A stretch of DNA of 44,476 nucleotides from the sequence record NC_073068.1. One strand, written 5' to 3'. A program made the translations under genes and the position numbers. The notes below the pieces were generated by a model. That model was not told where the DNA came from. It saw only the letters and a program-made list of their open reading frames with translations, and did no database searches. The first letter of the stretch is position 1. Each line of letters opens with the position of its first letter. This stretch comes from Escherichia phage vB_EcoD_Pubbukkers. This document shows positions 5,067 through 40,475 of the stretch, one piece after another.

Positions 5067-5080
5067 TGGCCCCTTTTGTT
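5056..5080. terminator. rho-independent terminator between convergent genes
   Basis: GGGGCC-gtgat-GGCCCC stem followed by TTTTGTT; lies between the plus spanin ORF end (5066) and the minus gene end (5079). Confidence 0.6.
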
Positions 5081-5843
5081 AGCGTGGAATACCGCAGATT
5101 TCGTTTAACGTCTTCACATCCAGCGCCACCGCCGTGGACTTAGGCTTGTCCGGGTATGGAATGAACTGTTCCACTTCAGGCCACGCCTTGATCAGCTTCT
5201 TATCGGTATTGTGCATGTTCAGAACGCCGGTAACGGTTAGCTTGAACGCGTCATACTTAGCTCGCAACTCGCGTCGGGCCTTGTCGTTACGGTCCAGGCG
5301 CTTGCAGAAATCATGATCCGCCGGAAAATCAGCGCGGCAGCGTGGCTTATAGATCGGCAGCGCTTTCCCGTCCTCGTCCAATTCGCACACAGAAGCCAGC
5401 ATAACTTCTTCGTACCCAGGCACAATATCGCCGAGATCGGGAGATAGCATATTCATGTATTTATATTCCCAGTATCCGCGATGTATTCGGTATTGTCGTC
5501 CGTCACCGCTCAATGACAGTGTGCGCACATTTCCGCCTGCGTTGATTTCGAAAGTGGCGTCATAAACGCTGCCGATACCGTTCGGGCTGTCGGCGTCATA
5601 TCTATACGTCGCCTTGTTGGTGTATACGCAGACGCCGTACATCTGCGACGGGTCATCGCCGATTGCTTCAATGCGCTCACGTAGCTCGGCGAACGAATGA
5701 ATGCCTTCCGGCATACAGTCAAGCGTAATGGCGTACGCCAGATTTCGAGAGTCCATCATGATTGATTTGGCTTCGGTCGCGATTTCGTGGTCGCGCAGGA
5801 TGTTAGCCAGAATCTGGTTTTTAATGTCTTTCGTCAGTCTCAT
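5079..5843 (-). CDS. hypothetical protein (reverse-strand moron in head module)
   Basis: 255 aa starting MRLTKDIKNQ with RBS GAGGA; the ORF-track N-terminal extension (to 6224) is low-complexity antisense of the scaffold gene and is rejected. No recognisable motif. Confidence 0.6.
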   Translation of the reverse strand: MRLTKDIKNQILANILRDHEIATEAKSIMMDSRNLAYAITLDCMPEGIHSFAELRERIEAIGDDPSQMYGVCVYTNKATYRYDADSPNGIGSVYDATFEINAGGNVRTLSLSGDGRQYRIHRGYWEYKYMNMLSPDLGDIVPGYEEVMLASVCELDEDGKALPIYKPRCRADFPADHDFCKRLDRNDKARRELRAKYDAFKLTVTGVLNMHNTDKKLIKAWPEVEQFIPYPDKPKSTAVALDVKTLNEICGIPR

Positions 5844-5991
5844 TAGTGTGTCCTCGTTGTTGGTGTGCAACCAATATATGCAACCAATACGAGGATCGCA
5901 AGCGAATTTTGCGATTATTTTTATCGCTGATAATATTAGAAGCGTGAAGTCGAGCGGGTGGCCTGCTCTGCCACAATCCCAGGGGGATAGC

Positions 5992-11461: not shown

Positions 11462-11595
11462 TGAAGCGGGACAGGCGGGACGTCCCGTTTTGTCCCGCCT
11501 CTGTAAAACTGCATATCTACTCACTTCCACTGCATAAACTCAAAACGGGACAAGCGGGACGTCCCGCTTAGTCCCGCCCTGTAAATGTGCATACC

Positions 11596-11782
11596 TATGC
11601 AGTTTTATTGCATAAACTAAGCGGGACAAAAAGCGGGACAAACAAGGGGCGGGACAAAGCGGGACAGCACCCCGTCCCCGCCAGTGCTGCCGCGGTTTTC
11701 AGCCGATCGGGACAGCGGGACAGCACCCCAGTCTTTCAGACTAGACGGGGGTCAATGGCCCCCCTCGTCTGAGACTGAATAA
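11596..11782. repeat. copy 1 of a ~188-bp duplicated non-coding element (GCGGGACA iterons plus conserved stem-loop)
   Basis: Near-identical to 40076..40263; contains a TATGCA-gttttat-TGCATA palindrome, four tandem GCGGGACA units, two more after a divergent 26-bp segment, and the hairpin AGACGGGGG-loop-CCCCCCTCGTCT (11743-11770). Confidence 0.85.
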
Positions 11783-21926: not shown

Positions 21927-22005
21927 GGTATCATCCCCTATATTTGGTTGAGTTTTAGTATTACACCGCTCAGCCAGGATTGCAACCAATTACGAGGATT
22001 TAGCT

Positions 22006-24777: not shown

Positions 24778-24839
24778 TATGTGGTCCTTTTTAGTTGGGG
24801 GCGGTATTGCCCCGACGCGTTAACTATAGTGCAACCAAC

Positions 24840-25310
24840 CTATTGGTTGCAAGTGAATTTCGCAACGTTTATTGCGTAAATATTCGGGACCAAATCGCTA
24901 CACGCCCGACGGATAGCTGCAATGTTCTTCGGGCAGTCTTCAATGATGACCAGTTCCGACACGTCTGCGTAGCAGACCATTTTGAACACGGTGCACGCCT
25001 TAAACTCCGGCGGCGGGGTGTCGTCCAGCATGTGGCGCATAAACAACCGGCCTGCCGGGAATACTTCCAGTTGCTCGGCGGTAGTCTCCCAACATTCGCG
25101 CTGCCGGTTAGTCAGATACGCTATCTCGAAGCCTTGCTCTTTGTACATGCGCAACAGCGGCAGCATATCCATGTTCAGGTCTTCGCGAACGTGCGCTTTG
25201 TGCCACTTCGCCCAAAAGGTGGATTTCGTTTTTATGCCTGGCACCAGGTCGGCGCGGGCATCACTCGAACCATTAATGACGCCATCCAGATCACAAATCA
25301 GTAATTTCAT
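24840..25310 (-). CDS. HAD-superfamily phosphatase (putative)
   Basis: 156 aa from ATG 25310 (MKLLICDLDGVINGS): the DxDGV motif I of haloacid dehalogenase-like hydrolases sits at the N-terminus; the ORF-track extension to 25376 is rejected. Confidence 0.6.
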   Translation of the reverse strand: MKLLICDLDGVINGSSDARADLVPGIKTKSTFWAKWHKAHVREDLNMDMLPLLRMYKEQGFEIAYLTNRQRECWETTAEQLEVFPAGRLFMRHMLDDTPPPEFKACTVFKMVCYADVSELVIIEDCPKNIAAIRRACSDLVPNIYAINVAKFTCNQ

Positions 25311-26448: not shown

Positions 26449-26691
26449 TTATTTAATCTCCGTAGTGCGGATTTCCTTGCGAGGAATAAATTTGCCGTCT
26501 TTCTCGACCCAGCAAGTTCCGTAACGCCATTGGGTATTACGGCCTGTTTGCTCGGCATATACGGTCTTGCATTCGTAGCGTTCCGAGTAGTAAATAGCCG
26601 CGGTAGGTACGAAAATACAAACGGCAAACATGAGGGTGAGTATCACCCAAAATCGAAGGTCGCCGTCGTAGTCGAAAAATAATGATCTCAT
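26449..26691 (-). CDS. small membrane protein
   Basis: 80 aa with one hydrophobic helix (FWVILTLMFAVCIFVPTAAIYY); ATG at 26691 downstream of a promoter-like motif pair. Confidence 0.45.
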   Translation of the reverse strand: MRSLFFDYDGDLRFWVILTLMFAVCIFVPTAAIYYSERYECKTVYAEQTGRNTQWRYGTCWVEKDGKFIPRKEIRTTEIK

Positions 26692-26705
26692 TGTGTCGTC
26701 TCCGG

Positions 26706-26736
26706 GTATTAAAAAGGGCGTCCAAACCGGACACCC
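26706..26736 (-). terminator. rho-independent terminator on minus strand
   Basis: On the minus strand GGGUGUCC-gguuu-GGACGCCC followed by UUUUUAAU; immediately downstream of the motif pair at 26746-26772. Confidence 0.5.
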
Positions 26737-26772
26737 TCAATATAATGCAACCAATACGGTTACGCAACCAAT

Positions 26773-27096
26773 TTACGAATAAAAATTTGGGTCGCGCGCA
26801 ACGTCTACCAGATACAGGTTACTAATGCGGTTGCCGTAGTGCCCTGGAGTGCGCTGGCGGCACACAACGGCGAAGCCTGGAGGGATTGTATTGCCCGTCG
26901 CAATAATCCACGCCACGCGTGCGCCAGACAGCGTCTTGCCGTTGCATTCGATACGGGTTCCGCCATCGGCGGTGTTGATGTTGCCAATCTTGCATCCGGT
27001 GGACTTCAGACGGATGACTCCGGTTTTGCTGTCGTATGTGAATAGCTGGTTAGTCATTGCGACCGAAAAATCGATTGGTTCGAATGTAGCGTTCAT
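26773..27096 (-). CDS. HNH endonuclease-like protein (possibly degenerate)
   Basis: 107 aa; N-terminal LFTYDSKTGVIRLK resembles the FxYDxxTGxLxWK start of small phage HNH endonucleases; C-terminal GHYGNRISNLYLV resembles the N-R-x-x-N-L core, but the usual DHxxG His position is altered. Confidence 0.45.
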   Translation of the reverse strand: MNATFEPIDFSVAMTNQLFTYDSKTGVIRLKSTGCKIGNINTADGGTRIECNGKTLSGARVAWIIATGNTIPPGFAVVCRQRTPGHYGNRISNLYLVDVARDPNFYS

Positions 27097-29704: not shown

Positions 29705-29983
29705 CTATGCGACCAATTCAGCAACCAATAAATCGCAGTCGGATATGTTGTCGATAACGCGAACGTCAGCACCGCGGCGGGCCATTCGCTCATGTTCACG
29801 TACCTGGTGCGGCTTCGGTTTTCCTCCGGGGCGCTTCACTTCGACGAACACTATTTTGCCGTTGATGATAATAATCAGGTCGGGCGCACCTGCGCGCCCC
29901 TCCCATGCCAGTTTTCGGCAGAATCCGCCTACCTCTTTCACCCGTCGCATCAGGTGACTTTGAATCTTGCCTTCTGGTGTCAT
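29705..29983 (-). CDS. VRR-NUC domain nuclease
   Basis: 92 aa; PD-(D/E)xK-type core DLIIIINGKIVFVEVKRPGGKPKPHQ typical of VRR-NUC; start overlaps the polymerase stop. Confidence 0.7.
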   Translation of the reverse strand: MTPEGKIQSHLMRRVKEVGGFCRKLAWEGRAGAPDLIIIINGKIVFVEVKRPGGKPKPHQVREHERMARRGADVRVIDNISDCDLLVAELVA

Positions 29984-32900
29984 TACTTCCTGTACCTGTA
30001 CATGATGTCGCCTTCAGCGGCAAGCGGGAAGCCTTTCGCCCAAATAGGCAGGTCGCACATCAGCGCGCAAAGCTCCTCGGTCGTGTAGTCGTCGGTGTCC
30101 GGAACTTCGGTGATCAATTCATCGTGCACTGACAGGACGATTTCATATCCGGCAGCTTCAACGCCAGGCATGGACCACGCGAGGATATCGCGGCACAGCG
30201 CCTGTACGATGTTTTCCGTCAGTTTGCCGCCGTAGGTGTACTGGAACCCCCACTGGCGCGTCGTCTGATTCTCGCCCTGATATTTAATGCGGGTGCTGGT
30301 GCGCTTCTTGCCGGTGTCTTCGTCAATCTCGGTCGTGACCGACAGCGCGATGCCGGGGTAACTCATGATGCGCCCCGACGGCAACTCAATTTTCAACCAC
30401 CACCCCGCGGCGTTCGGGTCGTCGCGCTCCTCGTCAAAGGTTGGGTCGTGCTTCGCCTTCGTACGGACAATCTTGAGCGCTTTTCTACCGTCCGGGCGAA
30501 CGGTAGCGCCAGCCCAGTATGCTTTGCCCGGATTGCGTATTGCACACAACACCGCGTCCTCAAGCTCGGCCCAAAAGGCTACCGTCTTCGGGTGCGCCTC
30601 TCGCCACATGCGTTTAATCGCATCACACGTAAGCCATACGTTTTTCGGCAGTATGTAAGTCGGGCGCTCGTCCTTCTTGCCCGGCTTCGGCGGTCGCTTC
30701 GCTTCGTTAATGCGGGCGTACTCATAACCCCGTTTAGCCGCTGCCCAAATGTGATTGGGGAATGTGCCCTTCATGACGTCCGCCATCGCGTAAAGGTCGA
30801 GGCCCAGGTTTTTAGCGAACTGCAAGAACGCCGCGACGCCGCCACCATAGCCCAGGCCAAGCTCGCAGTTATGCGCCACCAGAAAACCAGACTTAGACGC
30901 AATAAGGAACCGGTTTCCGTCTTCCACATCAATCAGGTCGTAAACCGGCTCGCAATAGGTTAACTTCCCGTTCCAGTTCAGCAATGCGGGTAAGGGCTTC
31001 ATCGTACTTTCGCTGAAGCTCGGGCACGCTGCGCCGGTTACGGCAGTTTTCCGAACGGCTGACAAACCGAAGGTTTCCAGGCTCATAGTTGCTGTCTGTA
31101 TCGATCCGGTCCATTTCGAAGTCTGGATTATCCCAGCCGTCCAGCGTTTGAACGTAGAGAAGAAACGACCTTTTATCTCTCTGCCATTCGTCACATACGG
31201 CAATCCCACGACCGCCGTAGTTTTTATACCCTTTGGCGCGGGGGTTTGTCGTTCGTGATATTGCCGCTGACAGCCGGTTGAGCAACCGCGTTCTGTGCGC
31301 ATCGTCTGGCATTGCGTCATCGTAGCAAAAATACTGTTTACGATACCGCTTTGTCGCTTCAATTGCGCAGAGGTTGCATTGGGATGTTTTACCCCTTCGG
31401 ACGTTGTCATACCCGACGCGTCCTGGCATCGCTCCGCAATCACATTGGGCCAGCAGTTGTCTGTGCCCCTGTCGTTTTGGTAATTCGCGCAGGATAACCA
31501 GGCGTCCATACCTCTCGCCAGGGCGCGGGCCATCGTGCACCTGTCTGAAACGAGTTGCCTTGCCTCCTTCCATGAATGCGTCAAGATTTTGTGGTCTTCT
31601 GTCATCAAGACCCCGTCCACGTCTATCACTGGTTTCCACCCCATAAGGTGCGCGCCTTTTGTACTCACCCATTTTTCGCCGTTCCATACTTTATCCGTTG
31701 ATGTTACGGCCATAATATCCTTGAACCCGCCATCGGTCAATACTTGGGTATGGCGGTGCAAGCAAGCCTTCCCTATCTGGCGTAAGTCCTTGCGGTTAGC
31801 TTTAATGTAGTCCGGGTCCAGGCCGAACATCTTACCGGCAGTCTCACAATAGATATCACGACCGGCCTTAAACACCATTAGCGCGGTTTTCTCGCCAGCG
31901 ATCCAGGCAAGTCCACGCCCTTCCACGTTGGAGTAGTCCGCTACGACAAACTTCTTGCCCTTAGCCGGGATAATGCACCCGCGAACGGTCGAGGCTGTTA
32001 GCTTCGATATGTCGTACGCCCAGTGTGCGGTCCCGCGTAGCAGGGAATTGATGCCGTTGGTGAGCATGTGCGACCGGACCCAAAAAGCAACGTCGCTCTC
32101 GCCTTCGCGGCGCTTAATCTTCCCTTCGTGATCGTCGCTATACTCGCCGCGTGCCAGGTTTTGAGGCTGGAAGCCTTTACCGGCCCAGCGTAGCGTGCGC
32201 TTTGCCCCTCCATACTGAAGACAACCTCGGCGGCGACCGTCGGCGGATAGGCCATTAACGAGCGGATTGTACTTAGTCGACGCCGTGGATGACGCACCGA
32301 GGCGCATCTCGATAAGCACTTTGCCCTCGTCGGGGAAGTCTGGATCTTCCAGCAGGTCGTTAAGCGTGGATTTCTGCGCATTGTGGATTGTGAACGCAGG
32401 CGCGAGGTCGCGCAGCGCTGGCAGGAAGTCATTGCCGGTCAGCTTACCGCCGAAGCGCTCCCAGGCTTCTTCCTTCAATTCTTCCTTATGCGCCTGCACC
32501 GCTTTGATCGCGGCGTTCGCCAGGTCAACGTCCACATAGAAGCCGCGGTCATTGATCAACTGGTCGATAAGCAGGATTTCATCTTCCTTCGGGGTATTAC
32601 CCCAGTCCGGTATGCGCCAGTAGACCTCCCGCATCGCGATAATATCCAGCGCGGCATATCGCAGAAATTTGGCCCATTCTTCAGGGTGAGTCTCGCGAGT
32701 GTAGCGGCGGATTTTGTAAGTCTTAGGGGTAGGCTTGCAGAATCGTTTAATCAGCGCCTTGCCTGCCTTATCCTTCGCGTGCTCTGCGTCAACGCCCAGC
32801 ACCTGACACTGCATATCGAGGCTGCCCGGCAGCGCGTGCCGAAAGGCCATAATCATGGTATCTTCGATCTGGCTTACCGGCAGGTCGATTCCCCACTTTT

Positions 32901-33171
32901 CACGGATAACCAGGCGGTCAAACAGGAGGCCGTTAGCCATCACGATTTTTGCTTTCTTGCGGGATACCTGACGGAGCGCCTTGCGCAGTTCACGCGGCAT
33001 TGTTGGTGATTCAGTGGCATCCCATGTCTGCACGCGGCCTTCGTCGATGGCGTAGGTGCAAATCATGATCTCGGTGGTTGGGTGCTCTGCGTAGGCGTAC
33101 GCCCCTACTTTCTTCAGGTCCACCCCGCTAAATGTCTCGGTATCGAGAAACAGGCGTTCAAAGTTTTTCAT
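29983..33171 (-). CDS. DNA polymerase I family (3'-5' exonuclease plus polymerase) interrupted by an intein
   Basis: 1062 aa; Exo I FLDTETFS; motif A VADYSNVEGRGLAW; motif B split as RQIGKA | intein | CELGLGYGGG; motif C VLSVHDELITEV. Intein residues 470-768 carry block A (CLHRHTQVLTDGG), block B (ILTHSW), block F (VYDLIDVEDGNRFLIA) and block G (FLVAHN followed by +1 Cys). Confidence 0.85.
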   Translation of the reverse strand: MKNFERLFLDTETFSGVDLKKVGAYAYAEHPTTEIMICTYAIDEGRVQTWDATESPTMPRELRKALRQVSRKKAKIVMANGLLFDRLVIREKWGIDLPVSQIEDTMIMAFRHALPGSLDMQCQVLGVDAEHAKDKAGKALIKRFCKPTPKTYKIRRYTRETHPEEWAKFLRYAALDIIAMREVYWRIPDWGNTPKEDEILLIDQLINDRGFYVDVDLANAAIKAVQAHKEELKEEAWERFGGKLTGNDFLPALRDLAPAFTIHNAQKSTLNDLLEDPDFPDEGKVLIEMRLGASSTASTKYNPLVNGLSADGRRRGCLQYGGAKRTLRWAGKGFQPQNLARGEYSDDHEGKIKRREGESDVAFWVRSHMLTNGINSLLRGTAHWAYDISKLTASTVRGCIIPAKGKKFVVADYSNVEGRGLAWIAGEKTALMVFKAGRDIYCETAGKMFGLDPDYIKANRKDLRQIGKACLHRHTQVLTDGGFKDIMAVTSTDKVWNGEKWVSTKGAHLMGWKPVIDVDGVLMTEDHKILTHSWKEARQLVSDRCTMARALARGMDAWLSCANYQNDRGTDNCWPNVIAERCQDASGMTTSEGVKHPNATSAQLKRQSGIVNSIFATMTQCQTMRTERGCSTGCQRQYHERQTPAPKGIKTTAVVGLPYVTNGREIKGRFFSTFKRWTAGIIQTSKWTGSIQTATMSLETFGLSAVRKTAVTGAACPSFSESTMKPLPALLNWNGKLTYCEPVYDLIDVEDGNRFLIASKSGFLVAHNCELGLGYGGGVAAFLQFAKNLGLDLYAMADVMKGTFPNHIWAAAKRGYEYARINEAKRPPKPGKKDERPTYILPKNVWLTCDAIKRMWREAHPKTVAFWAELEDAVLCAIRNPGKAYWAGATVRPDGRKALKIVRTKAKHDPTFDEERDDPNAAGWWLKIELPSGRIMSYPGIALSVTTEIDEDTGKKRTSTRIKYQGENQTTRQWGFQYTYGGKLTENIVQALCRDILAWSMPGVEAAGYEIVLSVHDELITEVPDTDDYTTEELCALMCDLPIWAKGFPLAAEGDIMYRYRK
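30868..31764 (-). mobile_element. intein inserted in DNA polymerase motif B
   Basis: 299 codons between extein residues ...RQIGKA and CELGLGYG...; starts with Cys, ends with His-Asn followed by Cys; canonical Hint blocks at both ends; the central ~180 codons show no endonuclease motifs in the polymerase frame. Confidence 0.8.
30929..31687 (-). CDS. HNH homing endonuclease encoded in the -1 frame inside the polymerase intein
   Basis: 252-aa ORF offset by one nucleotide from the polymerase frame; contains GRLVILREL...CDCG...SQCNLC, KGYKNYGGRGIAVCDEW and DRIDTDSNYEPGNLRFVSRSENCRNR (HNH core). Likely true start at Met39 (31573); no strong RBS seen. Confidence 0.6.
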   Translation of the reverse strand: MERRKMGEYKRRAPYGVETSDRRGRGLDDRRPQNLDAFMEGGKATRFRQVHDGPRPGERYGRLVILRELPKRQGHRQLLAQCDCGAMPGRVGYDNVRRGKTSQCNLCAIEATKRYRKQYFCYDDAMPDDAHRTRLLNRLSAAISRTTNPRAKGYKNYGGRGIAVCDEWQRDKRSFLLYVQTLDGWDNPDFEMDRIDTDSNYEPGNLRFVSRSENCRNRRSVPELQRKYDEALTRIAELEREVNLLRAGLRPD

Positions 33172-34173: not shown

Positions 34174-34263
34174 TTTCCAATTCCTCATTTTCACATGTAT
34201 CGGGGTTATTGGAAGCCACCCCGTTCGGCTTGGTTGCTAATCTACTTGGTTGCGCCTTAGCGG

Positions 34264-36380: not shown

Positions 36381-36410
36381 CTAAAAAGAGGCCCGCTAAT
36401 CTGCGGGCCG
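36381..36410 (-). terminator. rho-independent terminator on minus strand
   Basis: GGCCCGC-agatta-GCGGGCC followed by UCUUUUUAG on the minus strand; separates the first early gene from the rest of the leftward operon with no room for a new promoter. Confidence 0.65.
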
Positions 36411-36933: not shown

Positions 36934-37129
36934 GGTATATCTCCGATTGGTTAAGTTTAGGTGTCGGCAGTTAACTTCGTCGGTGGCCTTAACATATTGC
37001 CAGGTTACGCGTTCTCCCGTTCGGGTAGTGGACCTGGTTATATAATCACGGTTGGGAATCCTGACACTTCGATCCGGCCCCTGCGTTACCCCTCTCCAGT
37101 TTGCGTCCTGCATCCTGTCGACGGGGTGA

Positions 37130-37159
37130 ATAATAGATTGGTTGCAGGATGGGTGTCAA
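37130..37159 (-). promoter_or_regulatory. sigma70-like promoter for the acidic-protein gene
   Basis: On the minus strand: -35 TTGACA (37159-37154), 18-bp spacer containing TGCAACCAAT, -10 TATTAT (37135-37130); a 7-bp inverted repeat CATCCTG/CAGGATG (37111-37117 and 37146-37152) brackets the -10. Confidence 0.5.
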
Positions 37160-37170
37160 CAACTAATTTC

Positions 37171-37206
37171 AAAAAAAAAAGCGCCGAGGCAAAATGCGAC
37201 GGCGCT
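37171..37206 (-). terminator. strong rho-independent terminator on minus strand (A10 on plus = U10 on transcript)
   Basis: On the minus strand AGCGCCG-13 nt loop-CGGCGCU followed by ten U; stem at plus 37180-37206. Confidence 0.65.
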
Positions 37207-37234
37207 AACCAATAAGAGACAATGAGACGGGAGT

Positions 37235-37263
37235 ATTATTACACGCGTGCGCGCCCGTTTCAA
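37235..37263 (-). promoter_or_regulatory. sigma70-like promoter on minus strand upstream of the U10 terminator
   Basis: -35 TTGAAA (37263-37258), 17-bp spacer, -10 AATAAT (37240-37235) on the minus strand; would give a ~55-60 nt transcript ending at 37171. Confidence 0.4.
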
Positions 37264-37335
37264 TATCCAAAGGATTTGACACCTTGCGGTTTTAGGTGTA
37301 GTTTCGTTGATCATTAACCAACTGAGGGCAGAGCA

Positions 37336-37665
37336 ATGAATGTAAACGACGCAATCGAAATGTTAACGAAGACTGTTTGCAGTGAGACTAGCCGGTCCTG
37401 GGCTTATACCGATGCCGTTGGGGAGGTGTTATTTGAAATCGAACGACTGCGCAGTGTCGAAAAAGAATTACGCGCCAGGCTGGAATTGCTCAACGGTACG
37501 GCGGCCAGCAAGCTGCAAAAGCACAATGAAGAAATGGAAGAATACAAAAAGCAGGTTATCCGTTTGCGCGCCGAGGGCAAATCCTGGGCGATGATTGCCG
37601 AGTTGACCGGAATTAATCAGAGCACAGTGCGCTCCTGGGTACGCAATAATAAAACTTCTAAGTAA
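37336..37665 (+). CDS. HTH DNA-binding protein (putative transcriptional regulator)
   Basis: 109 aa; C-terminal helix-turn-helix-like GKSWAMIAELTGINQSTVRSWVR; first gene of the rightward arm; perfect -35 TTGACA at 37276-37281 upstream. Confidence 0.55.
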   Translation: MNVNDAIEMLTKTVCSETSRSWAYTDAVGEVLFEIERLRSVEKELRARLELLNGTAASKLQKHNEEMEEYKKQVIRLRAEGKSWAMIAELTGINQSTVRSWVRNNKTSK

Positions 37666-39940: not shown

Positions 39941-40015
39941 ATTTTGCGCGCATTGGTCGCCGTTATGGGAATCCCCATATCGGTAAAAGATTAAATTTTG
40001 CGCGCATTGGTTGCC
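39930..40015. repeat. pair of 32-bp direct repeats (31/32 identical) overlapping the primase stop
   Basis: taaaagattaaattttgcgcgcattggtYgcc at 39930-39961 and 39984-40015, 54-bp period; each ends in an ATTGGTYGCC motif. Confidence 0.8.
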
Positions 40016-40075
40016 ATTTTGCGTGCTTTTAGCTGGTCGTATTGGTTGCCGTGTAGTGTAAATATAATGAATAGT

Positions 40076-40263
40076 TATGCAGTTTTATTGCATAAAGTAA
40101 GCGGGACAAAAAGCGGGACAGACCAGGGGCGGGACAAAGCGGGACAGCACCCCTGTCCCGCCCCGGATGACGCGGCCTGGCGAGGAGCGGGACAGCGGGA
40201 CAGCACCCCAGTCTTTCAGACTAGACGGGGGGTCTGGCACCCCCCTCGTCTGAGACTGAATAA
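40076..40263. repeat. copy 2 of the ~188-bp duplicated element (GCGGGACA iterons plus conserved stem-loop)
   Basis: Aligns with 11596-11782: same TATGCA...TGCATA palindrome, four plus two GCGGGACA units and the same stem (loop sequence differs). Confidence 0.85.
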
Positions 40264-40475
40264 AATCCGGGATTGCATAACGCACGGCAACAAGATGCGG
40301 AGTGCGGTCGTCGATGAACTAGGCAACCAACGCGAGATGCATTATGCTGAGTGAAAAATTCAGTTTGCAGTTGCAGCAGATAGCGATCAACTTTTTCATG
40401 CGCGTGATTGATATTGGTTGCATTCGTCCTGCCAGGGTGTTAGATTGGTTGCATATCAAACGAAGGAGGGCATTC

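Follow-up and report, generated by a model that had tools for sequence, protein, structure and literature searches.

The locus described here is a short intergenic cassette on the minus strand of Escherichia phage vB_EcoD_Pubbukkers (NC_073068.1), at positions 26706-26772 of a stretch of 44,476 nucleotides (nt), which was analysed at its full length and is called the window below. The cassette is situated in a long leftward block of replication and DNA-modification genes, between an open reading frame (ORF) for an HNH-endonuclease-like protein and an ORF of 80 amino acids (aa). The original prediction, made from the sequence alone, had placed here two copies of the 9-mer ATTGGTTGC, a TTGCGT-17-TATATT promoter and a hairpin followed by a U-tract, and every one of these elements was verified in its place on that strand. 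A region of 2.5 kb that includes the cassette matched 156 phage records at 80-96% identity, nearly all of them Escherichia phages of the genus Dhillonvirus, with vB_Eco_Maverick (95.6%) as the top match; by similarity, the window is the genome of a Dhillonvirus (HK578-like siphovirus). The HNH-like ORF is the last gene of a unit encoding a helicase, a Dcm-like methylase and the HNH protein itself, and was found in all sampled relatives. A Pfam search with the 80-aa ORF gave no match. The features of the locus are the following:

26773-27096, minus strand: upstream ORF of 107 aa, HNH-endonuclease-like (PHROG 99 HNH endonuclease, E = 7e-16)
26775-26773, minus strand: stop codon TAA of the HNH-like ORF, abutting ATTGGTTGC copy 1
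26772-26788, minus strand: A/T-rich tract AAATTTTTATTCGTAAA, just 5' of the candidate −35 and doubling as C-terminal codons of the HNH protein
26764-26772, minus strand: ATTGGTTGC copy 1, whose TTGC with the following GT makes up the candidate −35
26767-26762, minus strand: candidate −35 TTGCGT, overlapping ATTGGTTGC copy 1
26756-26763, minus strand: spacer of 8 nt between the motif copies, varying freely
26747-26755, minus strand: ATTGGTTGC copy 2, within the spacer of the promoter at about −23 to −15 and 2 nt 5' of the −10
26739-26744, minus strand: candidate −10 TATATT, separated by 17 bp from TTGCGT and by 2 nt from the hairpin
26732 (plausible range 26734-26731), minus strand: predicted transcription start G, 7 nt past the −10 and in the 5' arm of the hairpin, from sigma-70 geometry
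26736-26716 (core) or 26738-26714 (extended), minus strand: putative terminator hairpin with the core GGGTGTCC-GGTTT-GGACGCCC, from folding, our own scan and the relatives
26711-26715, minus strand: U-tract TTTTT, then AATA, read from the sequence
26700-26703, minus strand: Shine-Dalgarno sequence GGAG, 8 nt 5' of the ATG, the 3' limit of the conserved cassette
26449-26691, minus strand: downstream ORF of 80 aa with one predicted transmembrane helix, ATG at 26691 (PHROG 18961, function unknown)

The relatives used for comparison were collected via the flanking proteins and not via the element, which avoids bias, and complete genomes were added afterwards. The conservation set comprised 29 independent loci (26 distinct sequences) and the locus of a much more distant phage, L029, whose HNH protein is 59% identical, giving 30 loci. 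Scans of IMG/VR and of metagenomes gave chiefly close relatives; useful divergence came from contigs located through a helix-turn-helix (HTH) protein described below. Copy 1 of ATTGGTTGC was intact in 29 of 29 loci and copy 2 in 28 of 29, HK578 having ATTGGCTGC (one base different) instead; both copies were intact in L029 too. The two bases and the stem that follow the −10 hexamer were nearly invariant in the 29 loci. The 8-nt spacer between the motif copies occurred there in at least 13 variants and was once shortened to 7 nt, and third codon positions of the adjacent HNH gene varied freely. As read from these alignments, the conservation pattern is footprint-like and not one of general sequence similarity. 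The L029 locus consists of the stop codon, ATTGGTTGC, 8 nt, ATTGGTTGC, GG, TAACTT, one base, a 10-bp hairpin, TTAATTTT, GGAG and ATG. At the ribosome-binding site, most close relatives keep GGAGAC, whereas GGATTT is found in the Envy group and GGAGTG in L029.

The hairpin has a G+C-rich stem of 8-10 bp with a folding energy of −14.2 to −17.1 kcal/mol; its core can be lengthened to 10 bp if the first two U's of the tract are paired as well (G·U and A-U), and the loop is GGUUU. Folding of a 99-nt region gave z = −2.4, and equally good folding was obtained in 3 of 200 shuffles. In our own scan the hairpin was among the three strict minus-strand terminators of the window. The built-in consensus scan reported neither a terminator nor a promoter here, the hairpin being missed because the stem was apparently extended into the T-run, leaving too few T's. 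The orthologous hairpin of phage WF5505 (MK373790.1) was annotated by its depositors as 'putative transcriptional terminator'. Rfam gave no match for the region at E ≤ 1, nor for the whole window at gathering score.

Among the 30 loci the stem occurred in seven versions, and pairing was kept in all of them. Three changes are one-sided and give G·U pairs (two independent A-to-G changes opposite U and one C-to-U change opposite G), another adds a U to the 5' arm and a matching A to the 3' arm, and in L029 both arms differ at three positions (G-C to C-G, U·G to G-C and G-C to U·G). The joint chance of preserved pairing was ~0.002 under a simple model, with the pairs counted on a manual structural alignment; in the MAFFT alignment the arms were out of register. 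All wobbles in the stem are G·U on the minus-strand RNA, and the opposite strand would have A·C mismatches at these positions. Most of the 29 loci retained the U-tract TTTTTAATA; one had T6 instead, one TTTTTAACA and one the weaker TTTCT, and the tract of L029 (TTAATTTT) is weakened as well. Since the changes preserve the structure, the U-tract comes right after the stem and the position is a few bases past the stop codon, the element looks like an intrinsic terminator. The comparison supports the view that the hairpin and U-tract behave as a strand-specific RNA structure under selection, sited like such a terminator. The terminator called in the original prediction can be considered well supported, given the seven pairing versions, the strand-specific wobbles and the annotation in WF5505. 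A bidirectional terminator was also considered and ruled out by the T-poor plus-strand tail TCAATATAAT and by the wobbles turning into mismatches on that strand.

The −10 hexamer TATATT matches the consensus at 5 of 6 positions. In the relatives it reads TATATT, TATCTT or, in L029, TAACTT, so that T1, A2 and T6 are invariant across the 30 loci and positions 3 and 4 change. The −35 to −10 spacer is 17 bp, in one relative (L032) 16 bp, and in the 30 loci always within 16-18 bp. The AAATTTTTATTCGTAAA tract upstream resembles the UP-element consensus reportedly defined by Estrem et al. in 1998; its A/T-richness persists in relatives, but the tract is constrained by coding.

Because hexamers alone do not establish a promoter, the promoter call rests on the register between the motif and the −10. 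The arrangement of motif, 19 nt and TAnnnT, which corresponds to a 17-bp spacer counted from TTGC, was found three times in the window (the cassette, 29721 and 40413) against 0.01 expected, the frequency of TAnnnT being ~0.01 per position. The register holds for 3 of the 25 motif copies in the window (P ~0.002) and, in the distant relatives L026, L028 and L029, for 6 of 40 copies (P ~8e-6), there with unrelated spacer sequences. Furthermore, ATTGGTTGC occupies the only available upstream regions of genes opposed to their neighbours, at 5880/5867 and 21982; these genes are transcribed against the neighbours and therefore require promoters of their own. A sigma-70-type promoter at the cassette is, on this evidence, likely but unproven. 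The promoter as first proposed finds indirect support in its recurrent motif-to-−10 register and in the invariant T1, A2 and T6, and none in its −35 or in the hexamer pair taken by itself (see below); that it fires, we infer.

Other readings of the motif were tried and rejected. The spacing was unsuitable for a sigma-54 promoter (GG-N10-GC), the TTGC before the −10 was off by 1-2 nt for an extended −10 (TGn), and known sites of host factors (the CytR octamer GTTGCATT, FadR and marbox) gave partial matches only, in non-conserved flanks.

In the original prediction the two ATTGGTTGC copies figured as part of a local promoter-like pair. This proved too narrow, since the motif is genus-wide and is found at about ten promoters of the window, in both orientations. 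The window has 14 exact copies of the 9-mer, and with up to one mismatch there are 27 matches against 12.1±3.6 in shuffles. Its 8-mer core TTGGT[TC]GC is present in 25 copies where ~2.9 are expected. Five complete Dhillonvirus genomes have 23-25 core copies each (~3 expected), at orthologous positions in drifting surroundings, and distant relatives that keep the HTH protein have 9-17 (~1 expected); in L029 the motif is the most frequent 8-mer of all. Besides the cassette, the sites are as follows:

5867-5888, 21982-21990, 24831-24850, 29709-29729, 34229-34253, 37137-37145, 39952-40049 and 40413-40452: other ATTGGTTGC sites at sigma-70-like promoters

Several arrangements recur at these promoters. 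A copy at the −35 with a second direct copy in the spacer, start-to-start 17 nt apart at the cassette, was also found at 29721 and at several sites in relatives; the motif stands 1-2 nt 5' of a −10 at 26747, 24831 and 5880, and lies over the −10 and start, in the form TAnATTGGTTGC, at 5867 and 40444. Inverted copies are found in or just after strong promoters, namely TTGACA-18-TATTAT at 37137 and TTGACC-17-TAGATT at 34245/34229, and those at 37137 and 34245 lie 0-1 nt 5' of a −10. Weak TTGCnn promoters thus carry direct copies, with copy 1 at the −35, and the strong TTGACA/TTGACC promoters carry inverted ones, in the spacer or just past the −10. This distribution suggests orientation-dependent regulation. 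Since nine bases are invariant, both orientations occur and the spacing within pairs is variable (12-35 bp), the motif would be a protein-binding site rather than a polymerase contact alone, and it looks like a genus-wide promoter/operator motif bound by a factor. Since all promoters with the motif have a copy in their core, repression or shut-off is the simplest interpretation; the direct-copy promoters, with their weak −35, may instead be activated. The literature yielded no description of the ATTGGTTGC motif and no Dhillonvirus transcript map (subscription journals were outside coverage).

Some of the other motif sites have features of their own. At 29705-29729 (minus strand) the motif pair and the −35 of the promoter of a small Lar-like gene lie inside the 3' end of a VRR-NUC ORF and are translated there as LLVAELVA; this sequence is under coding as well as regulatory constraint, and the arrangement is kept in distant relatives. 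The gene at 5079-5843 (minus strand) is an opposite-strand gene within the late structural operon, encodes an Nmad5-domain protein (Pfam E = 2e-56) and has a motif promoter with the palindrome TTGGTTGCACACCAA. The motif promoters with hairpins at ~24800-24815 and ~34205-34225 (minus strand) have these G+C-rich structures, GGGGC...GCCCC and GGGGT...ACCCC, up to ~10 nt past the predicted start and without U-tracts; they may be 5'-end stabilisers. The divergent control region 37100-37345 (minus strand) comprises TTGAAA-16-TAATAA, a leader of ~65 nt with near-copies of the motif (ATTGGTTAGC and GTTGGTTAA), a hairpin with T10 (~37195-37165) and TTGACA-18-TATTAT, an arrangement that would yield a short leader ending at a terminator, or a small RNA, 5' of the main leftward promoter. 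The window also has 17 copies of a second repeat family, (A)GCGGGACA(G), mostly clustered in the intergenic regions 11466-11715 and 40101-40203; these are 'region A' and 'region B' of the SO-1 record, suggested there as a possible origin. The cluster at 40101-40203 adjoins three ATTGGTTGC/ATTGGTCGC copies.

Among the small proteins of the window that were scanned, one was the only protein with a clear DNA-binding domain:

37336-37665, plus strand: candidate motif-binding protein of 109 aa, a long helix and a C-terminal HTH of the LuxR/sigma-region-4 type, first gene of the rightward operon

Pfam recognised HTH_23, HTH_28 and Sigma70_r4_2 in it, all above gathering scores. The AlphaFold 2 (AF2) model, with a predicted local distance difference test (pLDDT) score of 84, consists of a long helix followed by the HTH, and the latter superposes locally on LuxR/GerE and serine-recombinase DNA-binding domains in the PDB, though the matches are short and non-significant (E about 1) and assign the protein to no specific family. 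In the homologues the C-terminal 60 aa, including the putative recognition helix, are invariant and the N-terminal 45 have almost fully diverged. Phages encoding homologues keep the ATTGGTTGC motif, and the protein is taken here, purely by inference, as the candidate binder of ATTGGTTGC. The relatives annotate it as 'transposase' or 'Gam'.

The position of the predicted start is central to the way the cassette may work. The original prediction had the transcript beginning inside or just after the stem, and the predicted +1 (26732) indeed falls in the 5' arm. RNA started there keeps 4 stem bp with −5.4 kcal/mol, compared with −17.1 kcal/mol for read-through RNA, and should therefore escape termination. 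Taken together, we favour with moderate confidence the view that the locus is a composite terminator/promoter cassette between two transcription units, with the 9-mers as factor-binding sites. Transcripts of the helicase/Dcm/HNH unit would carry the full hairpin of 8-10 bp and U5, and some or all of them would stop there. The sigma-70-type promoter would overlap this terminator, its −35 within ATTGGTTGC copy 1 and its −10 abutting the stem; initiation at ~26732 would give an RNA unable to form the terminator, and this RNA would read on into whichever gene comes next. The two ATTGGTTGC copies, covering roughly −40 to −32 and −23 to −15, would be bound by a phage-encoded factor, for which the 109-aa HTH protein (37336-37665) is the best candidate and which would set when the cassette promoter fires. 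Such a model of insulation and restart is reasonable for this cassette. The site at 36409 (TATATT-cc-hairpin) was tried as a second overlap of promoter and hairpin and rejected, as it lacks both the motif and a usable −35; the leftward operon therefore does not use the overlap as a general design.

A number of observations weigh against the composite cassette, and most of them would fit an arrangement without a promoter, in which the terminator, probably a partial one, is combined with an operator or roadblock, the 9-mers modulate elongation or termination in the manner of stoperators and the downstream genes are reached by read-through only. The −35, TTGCGT or TTGCAT, has 3 of 6 matches to TTGACA and is below the threshold of the built-in scan. 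The hexamer pair is at chance level, TTGC-N19-TAnnnT alone being found 8 times in the window against 5.4±2.2 expected. A/T-rich −10-like hexamers stand directly 5' of most terminators of the window, e.g. TAATAT before 10746 and TATATT before 36409, and the TATATT of the cassette could be terminator context rather than a −10. The motif directly adjoins the stop codon. Three terminators of the same operon (36409, 29483 and 33378) leave no space for a promoter behind them. Transcripts must often read through these, so a restart promoter is not strictly required at the cassette. Since the U-tract has only five U's, termination may be partial; the link between protein and motif is one of co-conservation and not proof of binding; and the literature search found no transcript start or end data for any Dhillonvirus. 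A pure roadblock, however, leaves unexplained the fixed 19-nt register of motif and TAnnnT, which recurs in distant relatives with diverged spacers. It also has to accommodate the invariance of T1, A2 and T6 next to variable positions 3-4, and the same motif architecture before opposite-strand genes that need their own promoters. An arrangement without a promoter is a serious possibility, though an unlikely one.

The composite cassette also has to be weighed against explanations that keep one of its parts and change the meaning of another. The ATTGGTTGC motif might be the extended −35 or promoter consensus of this lineage, read by host RNA polymerase alone or with a MotA-like activator, and not a repressor operator. 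The exact position of copy 1 at the −35 in a fixed register, the weak TTGCnn −35 of the direct-copy promoters, which resembles that of activator-dependent promoters, and the sigma-region-4-type HTH of the candidate protein all agree with this. Many copies, however, lie off the −35, in the spacer 0-2 nt from the −10, over the −10 and +1 (TAnATTGGTTGC) or inverted in the strong TTGACA/TTGACC promoters, and all nine bases are invariant, yet the five 5' of TTGC are not needed by sigma-70; we find this explanation rather doubtful. That the hairpin would chiefly serve mRNA processing or stability, e.g. as a barrier to RNase III or RNase E, or translation of the downstream gene, is improbable. The U-tract-less hairpins after other promoters of the window (~24810 and ~34215) make a 5'-proximal stability role conceivable, and the U-tract of the cassette is short; it is nevertheless retained right after the stem in most loci, and the hairpin is clear of the Shine-Dalgarno sequence, is kept before three unrelated genes and matches no Rfam family. 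The view that repeat, A/T-rich patch and hairpin came together by chance and have no function could appeal to the weakness of the individual hexamers, but it is effectively refuted by the comparative data, i.e. by a motif ~8-fold enriched in every genome examined, by the footprint-like conservation and by the structure-preserving stem changes across the 30 loci.

The composite cassette, still the favoured reading, is not tied to the gene that follows it in the window. From the stop codon to the Shine-Dalgarno sequence it is found unchanged before three genes: the 80-aa gene in the window, a 154-aa 'ligase-like' gene in WF5505 and SO-1, and Dam in HK578. Where the downstream gene differs, as in about half of the 156 relatives, homology stops at or just before the start codon. 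The 80-aa gene is missing from WF5505, HK578 and about half of the relatives, and its ORF is a gene-precise indel, from ATG to ATG, of 243 nt with ATGA(A/G)A microhomology; the following 154-aa gene is also missing in some relatives. Judging by these comparisons, the position behind the cassette is a natural slot for accessory genes. Since the cassette is kept before three different genes, its role would belong to the transcription-unit boundary and not to the membrane-protein gene. The suggestion that its promoter serves the membrane-protein gene at 26691 would thus apply to the window, where that gene does follow, and not to relatives with other genes in its place.

The closest known analogue is the promoter-early stem-loop (PeSL) cassette of T4-type phages, which combines a sigma-70-type promoter with a terminating stem-loop, both activities having been shown experimentally (Arbiol et al. 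2010, PMC2839356; Comeau et al. 2014, PMC4122927). Like the present cassette, PeSLs are short, occupy the space from one gene's stop codon to the Shine-Dalgarno sequence or ATG of the next, and hold a sigma-70-type promoter (predicted here) and a terminator stem-loop. The PeSL stem-loop can lie just 3' of the −10, as it does at the cassette, and both are tied to variable, optional genes, the downstream gene content differing among relatives in the present case. The cassette thus belongs to a known kind of phage control cassette. In contrast to this single site of the window that pairs a motif promoter with a terminator hairpin, however, PeSLs number ~50 per genome, are concentrated in hyperplastic regions and are alike enough to recombine. 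The remaining terminators of the window have neither a −35 nor the motif. Their promoters are near-consensus and strong, whereas the −35 here matches at 3 of 6 positions, and they have no separate operator-like 9-mer such as ATTGGTTGC. They also belong to T4-like myoviruses, and the cassette to a siphovirus. For recombination between cassettes as a source of the indels no evidence turned up; no second cassette flanks the indel, and the junctions run from ATG to ATG with ATGA(A/G)A microhomology only.

Taken as an ordinary intrinsic terminator with an internal operon promoter, the cassette would show the usual G+C-rich hairpin and U-tract past a stop codon and a promoter that restarts transcription for the next unit, and standard tools had already made such a prediction for the WF5505 orthologue. 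Ordinarily the terminator comes first and the promoter second, whereas here the −10 is 5' of the stem and the start is within it. In T4 middle promoters the MotA box replaces the −35 and the normal sigma-70 −10 is kept. The likeness consists in a phage-specific 9-bp box in the −35 region together with a sigma-70 −10, implying a phage-encoded adaptor, but the extra copies that lie in the spacer, cover the −10/+1 or are inverted are at odds with an activator of the MotA type, and no MotA or AsiA domains were seen in the small window proteins scanned. The stoperators of mycobacteriophage L5 and Cluster A, reportedly described by Brown et al. in 1997, are asymmetric multi-copy repressor sites. By analogy only, they share with ATTGGTTGC the short asymmetric site in tens of copies, located at promoters and stop codons and mostly co-oriented with transcription, and a small HTH protein as the reader (a candidate here). 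L5 is temperate, and its stoperators are bound by the immunity repressor. Dhillonviruses differ in being virulent, and most of the motif copies here are in core promoters rather than within operons; neither an integrase nor a repressor was found in the annotated relatives or in Pfam scans of selected window ORFs.

A more far-reaching proposal concerns the motif as a whole. ATTGGTTGC may be the operator of a previously uncharacterised genus-wide switch, in which the 109-aa protein would act at about 20 asymmetric sites, shutting strong early promoters and gating or activating the weak TTGCnn ones, and which would be coupled at the cassette to a terminator. This proposal is tentative, and we put it forward as an idea worth pursuing and not as the expected outcome.

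A further observation was made at the DNA polymerase gene of the same leftward strand (29983-33171, minus strand). Its ORF has 1062 aa compared with 763 aa in HK578, the difference being a 299-aa in-frame insertion between ...RQIGKA and CELGLGY. The insertion starts with Cys and ends with His-Asn before Cys, so its boundaries are intein-like. In the SO-1 record the corresponding segment is described as a group I intron that includes an HNH gene. DNA_pol_A was the only Pfam match of this ORF.

The Dhillonviruses (HK578-like phages, several of them in the BASEL collection) are widely used in phage-defence and phage-therapy work. The cassette is of modest interest in itself, and the genus-wide 9-mer with its candidate regulator is the more interesting lead. 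Together they yield a testable transcription map, with about ten promoters sharing one 9-mer, few terminators and a single candidate regulator. With regard to mechanism, a single DNA segment would serve as a terminator for incoming transcripts and as a non-terminating leader for its own, a principle already experimentally shown for PeSLs. In phage engineering, the cassette indicates a natural site for insertions; directly behind it, relatives have zero, one or two extra genes, and each gene in this slot would inherit the same predicted promoter, terminator and ribosome-binding site. If the proposed switch is real, this optional gene slot would be shielded from transcription of the genes before it and would have a timing control of its own.

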